Shown: positions 1 through 6,991 of the stretch, piece by piece
How positions within the stretch are numbered: the first letter of the stretch is position 1
Layout: each line of letters begins with the position of its first letter
NCBI RefSeq assembly: GCF_052425735.1
Contig: NC_135759.1
Span: 13,144,001-13,208,000 of the forward strand
Reading direction: 5' to 3'
DNA from: Oculina patagonica
Taxonomy: Eukaryota
DNA length: 64,000 bases
Notes under the pieces: generated by a model
Databases searched by the model: none
Told to the model about the DNA's origin: nothing
What the model saw: the letters and a program-made list of their open reading frames with translations, nothing else
Translations under genes and position numbers: made by a program

Positions 1-1
1 G

Positions 2-58
2 GGGGCAAAGGGCGTCACCGGTAGTTACAACCGACGTCCAGCCCCGTGGGAAGTATGA
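2..58 (+). CDS. C-terminal end of an upstream Polinton ORF (partial, ...GAKGVTGSYNRRPAPWEV*)
   Basis: Open frame from base 2 to TGA at 56-58, which overlaps the ATG at 55-57 of the next ORF. Confidence 0.45.
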   Translation, partial: GAKGVTGSYNRRPAPWEV

Positions 59-390
59 ATCGATTACGTCGACAGCGTCCGTTCTTGGAGAGCATTCTGA
101 GAGAAGCCAATCGGTTCAAGCGAGAAGAGATGTTACAGCACGCCAACGCCGATCAGATCAACGCCGTGAGTGAGATGGTATTGAATTTGCTCAAGAACCG
201 CATTCCGCTCAGTCCACCGATCACTGCCAAGCTGCGACGATATAAGAAGGTCTTGCGCGAACTGGGTAAGCGCAGAAACTCGTTGAAGAGAAGGCGAGAA
301 GGTCTCCTGTCACAGAAGGGTAGTGGGTTTTGGAAAGGACTGCAACAGATCTACCAAGCATGTCTCTGCAAAACACCCTCCAGACAATGA
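55..390 (+). CDS. Small basic Polinton protein (probable virion core protein) with a QKGSG|F putative viral protease cleavage motif
   Basis: ATG at 55. The pattern 'AVSEMVLNLLKNRIPL...LRELGK...RRREGLLSQKGSGF' resembles small conserved Polinton ORFs (recognised from memory). R/K-rich. Confidence 0.65.
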   Translation: MNRLRRQRPFLESILREANRFKREEMLQHANADQINAVSEMVLNLLKNRIPLSPPITAKLRRYKKVLRELGKRRNSLKRRREGLLSQKGSGFWKGLQQIYQACLCKTPSRQ

Positions 391-722
391 TGAAAATGTT
401 ACGCGAATCGGCGGACAGAGAAGCAGAGTGGGAAAAGAGAGCAGACCATTGGCACAAAGCCTACGCCCGCGTCAATCATGACTATTTGGCTTTAAAATAC
501 GACGCAGAGTGCGAAGATTGCATTCGAGAGAGGCAAGAGACTCCGGAAGGAAAGACCCTAGTACTGTGCCAGGAGTGTAGCGACAAGTGTACATCGAGAA
601 GCGACTTGAAAAGGCGCCTAGACAAGTTAGAAGAGGAAGTTCGTTACTGGCAAGGGTGTTACGAAAGCTTGTTGGAAGAATACTTCAAAGATGACCGAGG
701 AAGTCGTGATGGTTCCCGCTAA
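387..722 (+). CDS. Polinton hypothetical coiled-coil protein with CxxC...CxxC (possible Zn-binding) motifs
   Basis: ATG at 387 overlaps the previous stop (ATGA). CEDC and CQEC motifs flanked by heptad-like helices. Confidence 0.6.
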   Translation: MMKMLRESADREAEWEKRADHWHKAYARVNHDYLALKYDAECEDCIRERQETPEGKTLVLCQECSDKCTSRSDLKRRLDKLEEEVRYWQGCYESLLEEYFKDDRGSRDGSR

Positions 723-1290
723 AGACTTGAATCGTTTGGTGCAATATTACAAAGGCGAAATCACGGACAATGCATTGTTGAACAAAGCGGCTCGCATAGC
801 AGCCGAAAGTCACTTGCTGTTAAAAGATAAATCCGTTCCCGACGGTATCGCCGTGGCACGAGTGAAACCTCTCGCTCGCGAACGGGCTCGTTTGACCAAA
901 CGGATACGTCAATTTCCCATGGGAGGAGTAACAGCCAGACGGCCGGGCGAAGAAGCGGAGGAGGAGGAGGAGGAGTTGGAGAATGTGGGTTTGGTGACGG
1001 GACCCGTGGAGACCATGTTGAAACAACTCATAAAAGGAAGTGCCAAGAAATCACCTCCCACAGTCACCCCGAGGGCGACAAAGAAAGCAAAGACGGCACC
1101 TGCGGGCAAACCGACATTGGCAGAGAGATTCAAGAGTTTAGAAGAGAAACTAAAGACGAGGAAAAAGCCAGCTGTGCGGAAAACGGAAGCCGAGAAACTG
1201 AAACCATTACCCGGTTGGGAAGATTGGGCCAAAGGCAAAAAGTTGAGACGAAAATTGGAGTATGACGAAGACCAAGAAGAAGAGGACTGA
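691..1290 (+). CDS. Polinton hypothetical protein, 199 aa, with an acidic tract and basic C-terminus ending KPLPGWEDWA
   Basis: Long ORF. The C-terminal motif LKPLPGWEDWA is conserved in the element B fragment at 2596-2697. Confidence 0.7.
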   Translation: MTEEVVMVPAKDLNRLVQYYKGEITDNALLNKAARIAAESHLLLKDKSVPDGIAVARVKPLARERARLTKRIRQFPMGGVTARRPGEEAEEEEEELENVGLVTGPVETMLKQLIKGSAKKSPPTVTPRATKKAKTAPAGKPTLAERFKSLEEKLKTRKKPAVRKTEAEKLKPLPGWEDWAKGKKLRRKLEYDEDQEEED

Positions 1291-1627
1291 AAAAAAGACG
1301 ACACGGCGACGACAACGCGGACGTGGGATCGACATTCAGAAGTGGCTCGGCAAGACTGGAATCGAATTTCACTGGCCCGGTTATCAGTACATGGGTCCCG
1401 GAACCAAATTGGCCAAGCGATTGAAACGCGGGGACCCGGGCATCAATCGATTAGACAAGATCGCCAAACAGCACGACATCGATTACAGTCACGCCAAGAA
1501 TCTAAGGGACAAGTGGAAAGCCGACGAGAAAATGATTAAAGCCATCAACAAATTACCTGGAAGTAAAACCATGACGGAACGCATTGTCAAACGAATCATG
1601 CAAGCCAAGAAAATGTTGAAACTTTAA
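1262..1627 (+). CDS. Parvovirus VP1u-type phospholipase A2 (Polinton/adintovirus PLA2X), copy A
   Basis: HWPGYQYMGPG (YxGxG Ca2+ loop) and DxxAxxHDxxY catalytic motif (DKIAKQHDIDY). Basic N-terminus followed by QRGRG. Confidence 0.9.
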   Translation: MTKTKKKRTEKKTTRRRQRGRGIDIQKWLGKTGIEFHWPGYQYMGPGTKLAKRLKRGDPGINRLDKIAKQHDIDYSHAKNLRDKWKADEKMIKAINKLPGSKTMTERIVKRIMQAKKMLKL

Positions 1628-1884
1628 TGTTGTAACTTTGAACACATTAAAGAACAGGTTGAACGTTTACATGGTGTACATCGCATTCGATCGCCGACTC
1701 GTTCCCAGAACACCCGAGAAAAGGGGATACCCCCATCCCCCCTCCCTCACGTGATTTTTTTAAAAAAATAGCTTTACGTTTTCTCAGAATCGCCGACCCA
1801 AATTCTTTGAAAAACATGGCAATTTGTGGACAATATATAATGGATGGTGGTCTTGCTAACTCACTATGAAGTGTGAGTGTATCG

Positions 1885-2011
1885 CGAATATCGAATATCG
1901 AAAATCGAATATCGAATATGGAATATCGAAAATCGAATATCGAGTATCGAGTATCGAATATCGAGTATCGAGTATCGAATGTCGAGTATCGAGTATCGAG
2001 TATCGAATATC
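1885..2011. repeat. 7-bp tandem repeat (CGAATAT/CGAGTAT)n, about 18 copies, in the Polinton subterminal region
   Basis: Directly visible: ...aatatcgaatatcgaaaatcg...agtatcgagtatcg... Confidence 0.95.
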
Positions 2012-2030
2012 GGAGGACTTTGATGACGTA

Positions 2031-2400
2031 GGTCCCTAAGGGACCACGTGGTCGATATCTGGGTTCACCATGTTGAATAAATTAAAAGTAAAGCCGCCAT
2101 CTTGAATACATTAAGTGATGACGTAGGAGGGTTTGGTCACGTGGGTCCCTAAGGGACCACGTGGTCGATATCCGGGCTCACCATGTTGAATAAATTAAAA
2201 GTAAAGCCGCCATCTTGAATACATTAAGTGATGACGTAGGAGGGTTTGGTCACGTGGGTCCCTAAGGGACCACGTGACCCATATCCGGGCTCACCATGTT
2301 GAATAAATTAAAAGTAAAGCCGCCATCTTGAATTCATTAAGTGATGACGTAGGAGGGGTTGGTCACGTGGGTCCCTAAGGGATCACGTGGTCTATATCCG
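2031..2400. repeat. 113-bp tandem repeat, about 3.3 copies, rich in TF motifs and containing a palindrome
   Basis: GGTCCCTAAGGG recurs at 2031, 2144, 2257 and 2370. Full units contain E-boxes (CACGTG), a YY1-like GCCGCCATCTT and a CRE-like TGATGACGTA. Confidence 0.95.
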
Positions 2401-2404
2401 GACC

Positions 2405-2530
2405 TGTGATTGGTTCACTGCCATAATCCTGCAATCTGATTGGCTACTGCCGATACCCTTTTCGCGCATTTTATGCAAATTAGGTTACTTCCGGTCTTTT
2501 CACTTCCGGTCCAACTCGGATGACGTCATC
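2405..2530. promoter_or_regulatory. Terminal enhancer/origin-like motif cluster of Polinton A
   Basis: ATTGG (CCAAT) at 2409 and 2439, E2F-type TTTCGCGC at 2460, octamer ATGCAAAT at 2473, ETS ACTTCCGG at 2487 and 2502, CRE TGACGTCA at 2521. Confidence 0.6.
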
Positions 2531-2595
2531 CCTCATTATATATGCAACATGAAAGCGAGGTTTTAGGATCTATGTTAACCCATAAGACTACTACT

Positions 2596-2697
2596 ACGAG
2601 AGGAAAGCGACCGACCGAAGTAGAGACCTTGAAACCGTTACCAGGCTGGGAAGACTGGGCCGAAGGGCGACGCACCAGACGCAGACATGTCCAGTAA
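2596..2697 (+). pseudogene. 5'-interrupted homolog of the 691-1290 ORF (TRGKRPTEVETLKPLPGWEDWAEGRRTRRRHVQ*)
   Basis: Translation aligns to TEAEKLKPLPGWEDWAKGKK of ORF 691-1290. Homology begins right after the ACTACTACT terminus of A. Confidence 0.75.
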
Positions 2698-3088
2698 GAA
2701 ACGTAAAACAACGCGAAAAAAGACGAGACTTCCCAAGATCAGGAAGGAGTGGTTGAACCGCAAAATATGGACCCAGGCAGGAGGAAAAGTCGACATACAA
2801 AAACTGTTGGCCAAGACGGGAGTAGAATTTCACTGGCCTGGTTATCAATACATGGGACCCGGAACAAAACTAGAAAAGCGATTGAAACGAGGTGATCCCG
2901 GCATAAACAGGTTGGACCGTTTGGCTAAACAGCACGACATTGACTACGGAAAGGCTCGCTCTTTAGAACAGAAGTGGAAGGCAGACCGCAAGATGATCAA
3001 GGCCATCGACAAGTTACCGGGCAAAAAGACCAAGACTGAACGCATTGTTAAACGCATCATGCAAGCCAAGACAAAATTGAAACTTTAA
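2687..3088 (+). CDS. Parvovirus VP1u-type phospholipase A2 (PLA2X), copy B
   Basis: HWPGYQYMGPG and AKQHDIDY motifs. Clearly paralogous to 1262-1627 with many synonymous differences. Basic N-terminus followed by QAGG. Confidence 0.9.
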   Translation: MSSKKRKTTRKKTRLPKIRKEWLNRKIWTQAGGKVDIQKLLAKTGVEFHWPGYQYMGPGTKLEKRLKRGDPGINRLDRLAKQHDIDYGKARSLEQKWKADRKMIKAIDKLPGKKTKTERIVKRIMQAKTKLKL

Positions 3089-3220
3089 AAAAATCACACT
3101 TTTAATTCTTTTCGTTGTTTACAAGTAATAAAAAACACAAACTGCTTCACCATTGTCTCACTTGTTTTATCTTCCTCTAAGTGAACGCAAACCTATTTTA
3201 AATAAAAAAAAGACAACATG

Positions 3221-3227
3221 AAAAAAA
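3221..3227 (-). terminator. RNA polymerase III terminator (T7) for the tRNA-like gene
   Basis: AAAAAAA on + directly abuts the discriminator base. Confidence 0.75.
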
Positions 3228-3299
3228 GCCCCCAGCGAGGAGTCGAACCCCGATTGCCTACTTTAGTGGTAGGAGTGATAACCGTTACACTACCGGAGG
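3228..3299 (-). tRNA. tRNA-like Pol III gene, anticodon CUA (amber), non-canonical A33, inside Polinton B
   Basis: Minus strand reads CCTCCGG TA GTGT AACGGTTA TCAC T CCTAC CACTAAA GTAGG CAAT CGGGG TTCGACT CCTCG CTGGGGG C. This gives a 7-bp acceptor stem, D-arm with GG, perfect 5-bp anticodon stem, 7-nt loop and TTCGA T-loop, with A/B boxes and a T7 run immediately after. Confidence 0.85.
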
Positions 3300-6058
3300 T
3301 TGTTATACTACCCGCGTCGTTGTGGTTGGTTTTGAGCTGGCGCGCGCACGCGCAGAGGGTTGTGACGTCATCGCCTTGGAGTCACGTGACCTTTTTTCCC
3401 TTTGCCCGATTTTCCCACCCCAAATTTCCGCTGGGGGTCTGGGGCGAGCTCTTTTTGGCCGCCGGGGCCTGGAACCCACACTCGGACACCCTGGGACCCA
3501 CTCTTATGACGTCATCCACATCCTACTCACGTGATTTTCTCCTCTACGCATGCGCAGAAATACTGCTCTGTGATTGGCTGCTTCCGAATTTAAGCGGACC
3601 TTACTACTAATAAAGTCATTACAGCAAAACTCGTCACTTTTGTGTCGATAACCTCTAAACCCGCATGAGTGTGGCTATGCTACCGAAAAACTTCTTTGGT
3701 TGGTATTATCTTATTCCCCTTTTTCGTTTCTTTCAATGTTTTTCTGATTCGTTTCCTTTCCAGTGACAGAGTTCTACTTCTGCTGTTATAGTACATTTTT
3801 TTCGGAACCAGTCTATCTTTGCAGGGGAGGTATCGTCCCTGTAAACGTTTTGAACCATCTCCAGGCGCGGTTCTGGTTATCTTTTTAGGAAGGTTTCTGA
3901 AATGATGGTTTCTCTCTTCTACAAATATGACTGTTTGTTATTCTGCAAGTCTTATCTCTTTCTTTTGAATCAACCTCACGTTTTTATAGCGGAACCTCAC
4001 TTGACGATCACTTAATTGTTATCAACCATTTTGGCAGCGAGTTAGTAGTCAGATTAATAAACTTCTGCTGTACTTTTTTTCATTTCTTTTAACCGTGTCA
4101 AGGGAACTCCCTGTTTTGTGTAACTGCTGACGATTCCCGCTGGAGATCAATGTGCACACACAGCCTAACCCAGAGACAAAGTGACGATCGACTACTTGGA
4201 ATGGAGGAATGCAAAAGTCCGTTTGGAACTTACGACATCAAGATTCCTGTGGACTCAAAGCTCTCATGCACTGGGAATTCCTGGATCCTAGGAAAGAACT
4301 GCAAGGACTTAGAGGTAATTTGAAGTTCTTGTCTATAAAGTGATAAGTGAGAGACAGGGCGTTTGCCATTTGTATCCAACGATTCATCCCAACGTAATTT
4401 TCGGAAAAAAGGTAATATCTTCCTAGGTATTTCCTTTTTCTCACCGGAACGACAAAATTTCTATACCATTTGTTCGCATAACAAGGCTCCTTATATTGTT
4501 GGGAAGATTGCAGAATCACGTGCTACATAGTTTGAGCTTACACGTGATAACTCTCCTACCTAACCCGCCTTATTTTGTAGGTATTACATAAAAGGGAGGG
4601 GTGTATCACCGCTCTTGATACTTATCGTTTGGTCTGTATAGGAAAGAAGACGAAAATGCACATATAATGCGTAACCAAGTTTTGTTTGGCTGTACTCTTC
4701 TAAAACAAACCCTTTCTTATCACAGCTTACCAAGTTCACCCAAATGAATGTATGGGCTTACTTCTTCTATTGGTCGGACCAGTACCCATCGGGACCAGAC
4801 GACCGCATATGCAGGGTCCCAAGACAGCGAAGGGCACATATTAACAGGCATTACTGATCATGAGTGTTCTGTTACTTAATAATCAGTTTCAAAAGTAAAT
4901 CAATAAAAGATTAAATGGACTGGTTATTCAACTATTGATTTCTGTAGAACATAAACAGCGAAAACAATGAAATAAAATGCAAACAAAATTTTAGACCAGA
5001 GTAGATCAAATGTTTATAATGTATTAAGCTCAGGGTTGGTAGGGATGGTCTTTTACATGCGAAACCATGCAAGCTGCTGCTAAACTGTGAGCTGACTTTG
5101 TGCATTACAAAGAATGACTGAGAACGGCCTGATAGCATTCAGAATGTGGCGTACGAAAGCCCCTTGTACTTGCCCAGTTTAGTTGAGACCTAAAAGGCTC
5201 GCTTCGCTCGCTTATTCACTGTGAAAACTCGTGAGGTCGAATTGTGGCAAGTCTAGGTCCTTGTCAGTATTCGTTGCAGATGCGGTAGTGCTCACAAGAG
5301 CTGTATTTTTTTTTACAAAAAATTCTCCCAGGACATGTTTGGTTGGTTTGGACGATAAACTGACCCCATATAATAAAAAGTCATAACATTATAGGTTTTC
5401 CCTTGCTATACGATTACAGCTTTATCATGAAAAACAAAATTGCTTCTGTAGCTAGAAGAAAGATATAATGAAGAAAAATTATTTCTAAGAATATTTTAAA
5501 TCACCAAAAATCTGAACAAGTATTAAACTGCATAAAGACAATAGCAGTTTTTTTCGTAATTTTGTTATATAGCCGGAATTTTTCCCCCCAACAGCGCGCG
5601 GGCGCTCTCATAGGTTACTTTGAGGTCACATAACATCTAATAACAAAACTCTTTCAAAAAAAATGCTCCCCGCCAAAAGTCTCTAAGTGGGCAATATTTC
5701 AAAATCTCTGACGTCAGAGGGTAACAGTGCACTGTTATCCGCGAATGTTGACCACAGTTGCACGTGAATCTTCGGGAAACCAAATAGTTTTGTTTCCTCA
5801 GCTCCGCCTGAGGAAACGTCGAGATTTTTCGGGAAACAAAATTAACTGTTTCCCTCGGAACCAGTCATTACTTTAAGTGTAAAATATTTTAGCCGTAAAT
5901 TGTTATCTGTATAAAACTCAAAACAATGAAACGTGACATGGGCAACCTCCGGCTTGTTTTCTTCTTGTATGAAGGCAGACAATCCAAAGACCTTATAGCC
6001 GGAGAATAGCCATAGTCTATCATAGAGTACAAACTATTTGAATCAAGAATCTCTCTCG

Positions 6059-6991
6059 CTAAGTGGAGTTCATTCCCACTTGGTTTTTCGTGATTCTCAA
6101 TCGGTGTAATGTGCTTTTTATCGCACTCCGAAACTCCTTTACGCGCCAGAAATAAACAAACGGATTCAGAGAGGAATTAATGAAAATGATGGTACCCGAA
6201 ATTTCTAAGGACATTTTCTTAGCAGGACTGTGACCGCCAAGCTGTATAACGGCTGCTGTGCACAGATATGGAAAATAACACAGGAACAGAAGAAAACAAA
6301 CAATGAACGTGTTCAACACCGACCTCCTGTAACTAGTAAAATTGACTCGACTTGAAGACTGACTTTCGTCAAACCTTGCTTGATTGCGTATTTCTTGACG
6401 ATGACGTCTAATAACACGATAAATTTTGCAGTACATCAAAACAATAATCGAGAAACATGCAGTAGAGGAAGCAAACCCCAGAACGTAAAATAATCGAAGG
6501 TCATGTGTCCACGTATATCCCCATATTGAGGATAACAACCACGAGCCAAAGATAAATACCAGTATTTTTTTGCTTGTCACAAGGGATATGTATCTCAAGT
6601 GTAGGAAGAGTACAAGGTATCTGTCCACGCTAATTAAAGTTGCCGTGATAAATGAAACCCCAGATAGAAGGCTTGAAATGACATCAAAAGCAGTTTGTAG
6701 AGCTCGCGGTCCATCTTTATCATTAACAAGGAAGTACACCCGGGATATGATATACAAAGGCTGCGTTACTGTTCCTACCAAGAAATCAGTCAAGGAAAGA
6801 GCAAACAACAAAGTGTTTGACGGTGAATGCAGAGCTTGGGTTCGCCAGATTGAAAAAAGAATGACTGCATTTCCAAAACTTGCAATGAACAGACCAACCA
6901 CGTTAACAATACAGTTGGCTAGCAAACAGGTTCTTAATCTGGCGATTGAATTAGTTTGATTAATCGCATGGTGCAAAATAAATTCTTCCAT
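6059..6991 (-). CDS. Intronless class A (rhodopsin-like) GPCR, orphan melanocortin/adenosine-receptor-like type
   Basis: 310 aa with 7 hydrophobic segments. GN (TM1), LSLTD (TM2), SVDRY (TM3), CYFP (TM6), NSSLNPFVY (TM7) and FR helix 8. Confidence 0.93.
   Translation of the reverse strand: MEEFILHHAINQTNSIARLRTCLLANCIVNVVGLFIASFGNAVILFSIWRTQALHSPSNTLLFALSLTDFLVGTVTQPLYIISRVYFLVNDKDGPRALQTAFDVISSLLSGVSFITATLISVDRYLVLFLHLRYISLVTSKKILVFIFGSWLLSSIWGYTWTHDLRLFYVLGFASSTACFSIIVLMYCKIYRVIRRHRQEIRNQARFDESQSSSRVNFTSYRRSVLNTFIVCFLLFLCYFPYLCTAAVIQLGGHSPAKKMSLEISGTIIFINSSLNPFVYFWRVKEFRSAIKSTLHRLRITKNQVGMNST

Follow-up and report, generated by a model that had tools for sequence, protein, structure and literature searches.

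Polintons or Mavericks (Polintoviricetes), including those of stony corals in the available parts of PMC11131425, are the closest described relatives of the element studied here, which resembles them in its (AGT)2//(ACT)2 ends, 6-bp TSD, rve integrase, DJR-like capsid, candidate ATPase- and adenain-like genes and PLA2, with pPolB found in sister copies. Vertebrate elements have TIRs reported at 46-1,447 bp (PMC8097293), and the general range is given as 100-1,500 bp (PMC10748475, in the parts available), whereas the composite TIRs described here measure 2.1-3.1 kb and hold a buried terminus and a captured gene. Replication of Polintons via a racket-like single strand is a proposal made from sequence (summarised in PMC4196379). 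How polymerases get swapped onto conserved cores is left open in the available parts of PMC10748475 and 10.64898/2026.10.13.758929, and such a swap requires conversion of the far end too. The window, i.e. the whole stretch of 64,000 nucleotides of Oculina patagonica DNA that was analysed, starts at G000:C2:13144001, and its first bases lie already inside a Polinton.

One Polinton with composite mirrored ends at the C2 locus

The C2 locus is one Polinton without most of its polymerase gene, with composite mirrored ends and its own TSD. Counted from the first letter of the window, its features are:

1..3608, plus strand: right part of a single 18,548-bp Polinton (G000:C2:13129061-13147608)
691..1290, plus strand: core ORF of the family, 199 aa, containing KPLPGWEDWA; homologs at 75 of the best 80 of at least 468 metagenome PLA2 loci
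1262..1627, plus strand: PLA2-A, 121 aa (PF08398, E 6.4e-12)
1500..3608, plus strand: right TIR, 2,109 bp; mirror copy at C2:13129061-13131169, 2 mismatches
1885..2401, no strand: subterminal repeats, a short-period tandem array at ~1885-2010 and three copies with 113-bp spacing at 2019-2401
2404..2592, plus strand: buried A-type terminus, 95-97% identity to free ends of type-A pPolB elements
2572..2697, plus strand: chance fusion frame, 41 aa from ATG 2572 (51 aa from ATG 2542), different from the PLA2 frame
2593..2602, plus strand: joint, ~10 nt that fit neither the A end nor the stub's C1 allele
2596..2697, plus strand: 33-aa 3' stub of B', which is a diverged homolog of the core ORF; homologous to the C-terminus of that ORF
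2687..3088, plus strand: PLA2-B, 133 aa (PF08398, E 2.9e-10), with YMGPG and HD motifs
3300..3608, plus strand: outer terminus of B type, which is the functional end and matches the kind carried by elements with type-B pPolB
3609..3614, plus strand: TSD AATAAA; second copy left of the element, single copy in the empty-site contig of run X8

The whole series, from the inner terminus through the stub and PLA2-B to the outer terminus, is mirrored at the left end, where the inner edge of the TIR abuts the pPolB fragment. The terminal motif (AGT)2//(ACT)2, as in PMC8097293, is present on the TIRs, AATAAA stands on both sides of the element, and a contig of public run X8 passes from the left host flank to the right flank across one AATAAA, representing the empty site. 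An earlier note on this DNA, made from the letters alone, had reported a second, different terminus ending at 3608 and followed by AATAAA, had expected the same hexamer before the outer left end and had recognised a second, diverged PLA2, and all three are borne out, PLA2-B having 77-81% DNA identity to PLA2-A.

The element encodes an integrase (rve PF00665, E 4.1e-13) with a chromodomain in addition, and its capsid candidate is a DJR-like 467-aa ORF with an Atlas value of 0.98 to PF21738 clusters (24% and 15% of cluster members; recognition 2232, slightly below the tool's 2300 mark), which gave no match in Pfam and PDB sequence searches and to which a 99%-identical protein is filed under a stony coral. 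An ATPase-like and an adenain-protease-like ORF have sub-threshold matches to Pox_A32 (E 0.089) and Peptidase_C5 (E 0.009), respectively, with motifs and gene order that fit. The pPolB comprises aa 1-153 only, short of the full length that marks an autonomous Polinton, and a sister copy on C10 encodes a pPolB of 1,288 aa (PF03175, E 1.8e-47). On the host side, a single-ORF rhodopsin-family GPCR of 310 aa (window 6059-6991, minus strand; 7tm_1, E 1.5e-29) lies 2.4 kb from the insertion.

The sequence GACTACTACT, which the earlier note took as the end of its element A, is indeed present at 2586-2595. Because ...GACTACT closes all four free A-type elements whose two ends could be resolved (C8:28.9M, C3:18.3M, C6:27.3M and C5:16.2M, each with perfect 6-bp TSDs), the A terminus stops at 2592 rather than at 2595 and the joint lies at 2592/2593; slippage at initiation may have added an extra ACT. 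The 33 aa next to the terminus are homologous to the end of ORF 691-1290, as had been noticed before: aa 163-188 of that ORF can be aligned (69% of 26, E 1e-9; whole-genome E 1.8e-5), and the copy at C1:26.7M retains ~95 aa of the B' gene. The ATG at 2572 does open a 41-aa frame into this fragment, but PLA2-B is read in a different frame and starts from an ATG of its own at 2687. That the A end might drive PLA2-B, as the note proposed, is a conjecture. With window 2400-2800 as query, the whole joint turned up at five places: at this end, in inverted orientation 16.5 kb upstream, at a single site on C10 and at either end of an element on C14.

Buried termini, polymerases and the captured PLA2 in the family

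A whole-genome search with the 199-aa ORF, which has no match in Pfam and Atlas, gave 55 matches, and the census covers both ends of 31 copies, with diverged families (including those on C4) and orphan end matches left out. Five short A-end matches (C7:9.98M, C9:28.7M, C6:6.09M, C8:16.9M and C6:21.8M) stand outside all counts because their partner ends were not found. Among further ORFs of the family, one of 165 aa (L036:3286-3783) has a sub-threshold SLATT_1 match (E 3e-4) and another a GRF zinc finger.

The conserved pPolB stretch is present in 24 of the 31 copies, with 53-100% identity between copies, and these form seven polymerase groups (11, 4, 3, 2, 2, 1 and 1), type B being found in 11/24, while the core ORF across the same copies has a median identity of 99.3%. 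In these 24 pPolB-bearing copies, the terminus type tracks the polymerase and not the ~99%-identical core gene: the Mantel correlation of terminus with pPolB is 0.69 (p 1e-4), a value inflated because the pPolB-side terminus is physically linked to pPolB, as compared with 0.14 (p 0.11) for terminus with core and a weak 0.35 (p 0.01) for pPolB with core. Given this linkage of the polymerase-side end, more weight attaches to the opposite end, whose terminus agrees in 22 of the 24 copies, two being broken. One copy departs from the rule: C2:42.6M combines a B-type end with a polymerase that is just 73% like type B.

Buried termini, joined to a foreign stub beyond which an outer terminus lies, were observed in seven of the 31 copies, in five joint types, each at or near the last base of the terminus:

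A to B': C2 and C14:13.5M (TSD GCCGCA) at both ends; C10:13.9M (TSD CATTTT) at one end
C to B': C1:26.7M, C-type end, ~190 bp further upstream in the B' gene
A to D: C3:3.6M, A end joined to stub D
A to D, second: C13:15.7M, 312 bp further on in D
E to F: C1187, end E joined to stub F

The four further joints at C1:26.7M, C3:3.6M, C13:15.7M and C1187 are mirrored at both ends, with TSDs; each composite has its own TSD (that of C13 matching 5/6), and at the C13 joint terminus and target show a 5-of-7 similarity. The preference for insertion into the KPLPGWEDWA gene that had been suggested is weak, only two of the five joint types lying in that gene. The C10:13.9M copy is a one-sided composite with intact pPolB and a TIR of only 187 bp. 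Composite elements measure 18.5-21.0 kb on C2, C14, C1, C3 and C10 (C13 ~20.4 kb), intact copies ~20-21 kb, and the C1187 copy is longer owing to later insertions. At G000:C9:17603110-17603245 (L186) the order is reversed: a B-type terminus is followed, with no microhomology, by the ~135 bp that close an A-type end.

Stub D (L042:6166-7870, L081:5080-6530) contains short pPolB-like pieces, each on the minus strand, which in the C13 copy stand in N-to-C order along the plus strand. A joint like that of A to D is a loose end in run X4, and the right flank of the C3:3.6M copy (L042:8089-8754) reads like what we take to be a LINE ORF2. At G000:C13:3136100-3136475 (L141), a terminus is duplicated with an inverted piece between the copies, resembling fold-back repair.

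Composite ends occur in six of the seven pPolB-less copies and in one of the 24 pPolB-bearing copies, the 6/7 count not being independent because five pPolB-less composites have one common deletion joint, with a type-B pPolB fragment of 89-94% DNA identity to type-B copies; collapsed to lineages, the counts are 2/3 and 1/24 (p 0.025). The seventh pPolB-less copy, C5:16.2M (G000:C5:16195977-16214243; L093, L156, L094), is 18.3 kb long with plain A-type ends and a perfect TSD, and is a near-palindrome of one arm (~8.8 kb each) around a ~0.8 kb unique centre.

A true nest exists at C1187, an unplaced contig with a local duplication. Here an 8.5-kb element with TSD TCAGTA and 683-bp TIRs, which carries pPolB, a VLTF3-like gene and a GTPase of the EF-Tu type (E 4.7e-36), interrupts the PLA2-A gene of a host copy (G000:C1187:335378-367635; L160, L120, L121, L175) that has a composite TIR of 2,599 bp, the TSD AAATCC and a different pPolB deletion. 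Beside the nest lies a further 4-kb piece of the second family, that of the nested element, with integrase-like, PLA2, DUF5679 and protease-like ORFs.

The reading frame of the captured PLA2 is open in 7/7 copies, and of its variable sites 10 are synonymous and 2 nonsynonymous, where a synonymous share of 0.21-0.26 would be expected (p 7e-6 to 5e-5); between the PLA2-B genes of C2 and C10, which have the joint in common, 6 synonymous codons and 1 nonsynonymous codon differ. This pattern of substitutions suggests that the captured PLA2 has been under selection after capture, and exchange with unseen free B' elements would yield an equal synonymous excess in PLA2-B. Gene conversion from PLA2-A was considered as a source of the excess and gave no clear signal; of the six C2-specific PLA2-B sites in the aligned part, two have the PLA2-A base, three the base of other copies and one neither.

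Origin of the composite ends

With moderate confidence, we interpret the joint as an old insertion of an A-ended element ~1 kb inside the end of a relative, followed by copying of the joint to the opposite end during replication. In a first step, the integrase would have joined an intact A end into the relative B' near its B-type end. A strand that started at the outer B origin, newly made or displaced, could then have folded back via the inner inverted repeats (panhandle or template switch), with the result that the stub and B end would take the place of the sequence distal to the opposite inner repeat. Such arms might pass from copy to copy by recombination in the core, which is nearly identical among them. 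The product would finally have integrated as a unit and been replicated by a type-B polymerase in trans.

In the five two-sided composites, the outer 150 bp have 0-1 mismatch within an element and 7-23 between elements, and the inner 200 bp have 2, 0, 1, 4 and 12 differences within the element; towards the inside, end identity decays plainly in C1 and C13, a little in C2 and C3 and not at all in C14. Judged by these end comparisons, the pattern fits copying from the outside inward, and the near-palindrome at C5:16.2M likewise counts for end copying. The loss of pPolB likely has two effects, leaving the element free to use another origin and sparing length below an upper size limit of ~21 kb, a constrained genome size having also been argued for vertebrate Mavericks (PMC8097293). 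The C10 copy could represent either a precursor, composite at one end, or a recombinant formed afterwards. Two hits each in B' and D, neither of which was seen as a free donor, suggest that composite ends in turn served as targets later on.

Several facts count against this copied-insertion account, namely the C2:42.6M exception, the pPolB-core correlation, the loss of the other half at every resolved joint, which leaves no TSD to be shown there, and the failure to find an uninterrupted B' donor, which was seen neither in the element's own genome (best candidates scored) nor in viral contigs; in metagenomes, protein identity was at most 46-58% among the best 80 of at least 468 loci, and two PLA2 genes in one locus occurred in 0 of these best 80, many of the loci being short. 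Full-length donors for stubs D and F were not found either, F having one 77% match over 860 bp on C4.

A history without any integrase step, the chief rival, is rather unlikely in our judgement: a polymerase running off the A end would have switched template to a co-replicating relative, or free ends would have joined broken DNA, with end copying after. Such a run-off switch also yields joints at exact termini; the ~10 unexplained nt at 2593-2602 of the C2 joint and the 5-of-7 similarity at C13 could point to template switching rather than to the integrase, and the inverted pPolB pieces in stub D and the fold-back end at C13:3.1M are damage of the same kind within the family. The C9:17.6M joint, however, is devoid of microhomology, and the C1187 nest, which interrupts a gene of the family and is flanked by a 6-bp TSD, establishes that Polintons do receive integrations.

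A purely chromosomal history appears highly improbable; in it, deletion and ectopic gene conversion would have pared down proviruses lying nested or in tandem, and extrachromosomal fold-back would have played no part. A tandem-integration-and-deletion model is proposed in the available parts of 10.64898/2026.10.13.758929, and the one-sided C10 copy could arise in this way, but the composites lie on different chromosomes with their own TSDs and their ends match within the element and not those of other copies, indicating that symmetry preceded or accompanied integration.

Hardly credible is the model of the earlier note, in which A inserted into B at this very place with the other half of B upstream. 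It agrees with the local anatomy and the AATAAA at the outer left end, but the left side is a mirror image: the direct TSD ACGAGA that had been expected at the inner left end is absent, TCTCGT standing there as the mirror of the right joint, and in place of the 5' half of the B gene only the 3' stub is found, twice. Moreover, the empty site is without the whole element, and the unit recurs, at both ends here and in other copies with their own TSDs, which the note itself had named as evidence against its model. Because the arrangement is one mobile unit, there is no A-inside-B nest here; as history, a probable integration of A into B is supported by the exact A terminus, the four other terminus-to-stub joints and the C1187 nest. 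Misassembly of the joint or of the mirrored left end, a concern the note had raised for the junction, deserves next to no weight: although the family is multi-copy and the bridging contigs cover only the right-hand joint, the joint is bridged by contigs of two public runs from two studies (X1, 2539-2916; X8, 2428-2963; none among the listed pieces of runs X3 and X4), TIR pairs differ by SNPs and indels, and the pPolB-to-TIR joint recurs in five copies.

Returning to the copied insertion, we tentatively put forward a wider reading of all joints together, to which we give somewhat less than even credence. Polintons here might acquire a new replication origin when they integrate into the end of a relative and this end is then copied to both sides, whereby polymerase-less copies would become satellites of a common helper polymerase (here type B, 11/24), the captured PLA2 would be kept under selection, and the buried termini would be a base-level record of the long-proposed panhandle replication and of origin-polymerase specificity.

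Significance and comparison with known systems

If the relic of a copied insertion is real, it would show how Polinton viruses swap replication origins. The family displays conversion, one- and two-sided products, five independent joints and the terminus-polymerase match, all in one genome, and with such products at hand origin specificity becomes testable with short DNA ends and purified enzymes. For annotation, an internal ACTACT terminus is misleading, and a 2,500-bp TIR cap, as in the available parts of PMC11131425, would miss the full 3-kb repeats. In the main text of that work, as far as available, the words 'nested', 'recombination' and 'pPolB' are absent, and a search of the literature, largely of open-access papers, found no report of mirrored composite Polinton TIRs with buried termini.

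Adenovirus internal inverted repeats (PMC2518115 in its available parts, citing Steinwaerder 1999) offer a parallel in replication-induced recombination at non-terminal repeats. The adenovirus case concerns engineered vectors with no integrase, whereas the Polintons described here are natural and integrated. Products of such adenovirus rearrangements reportedly carry one end duplicated on both sides. Truncated EMALE virophages are similar in that deleted elements regain symmetric ends, while capture of a relative's terminus is not described in the parts of PMC8547959 available. The pPolB swaps of nematode Polintons (PMC10748475, available parts) likewise place divergent polymerases on a conserved core; TIRs are described as highly conserved there, whereas in the present family a different polymerase goes with different terminal bases at either end. 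The available parts of 10.64898/2026.10.13.758929 describe integration next to or into a relative leading to reassortment and propose that pPolB and integrase act on the same ends; mirrored composite TIRs and buried termini are absent from the parts of its main text covered, and base-level joints together with end copying are what the present family contributes. Overall, what is new here is a variant of the known Polinton mosaicism, the mosaicism itself being already known.
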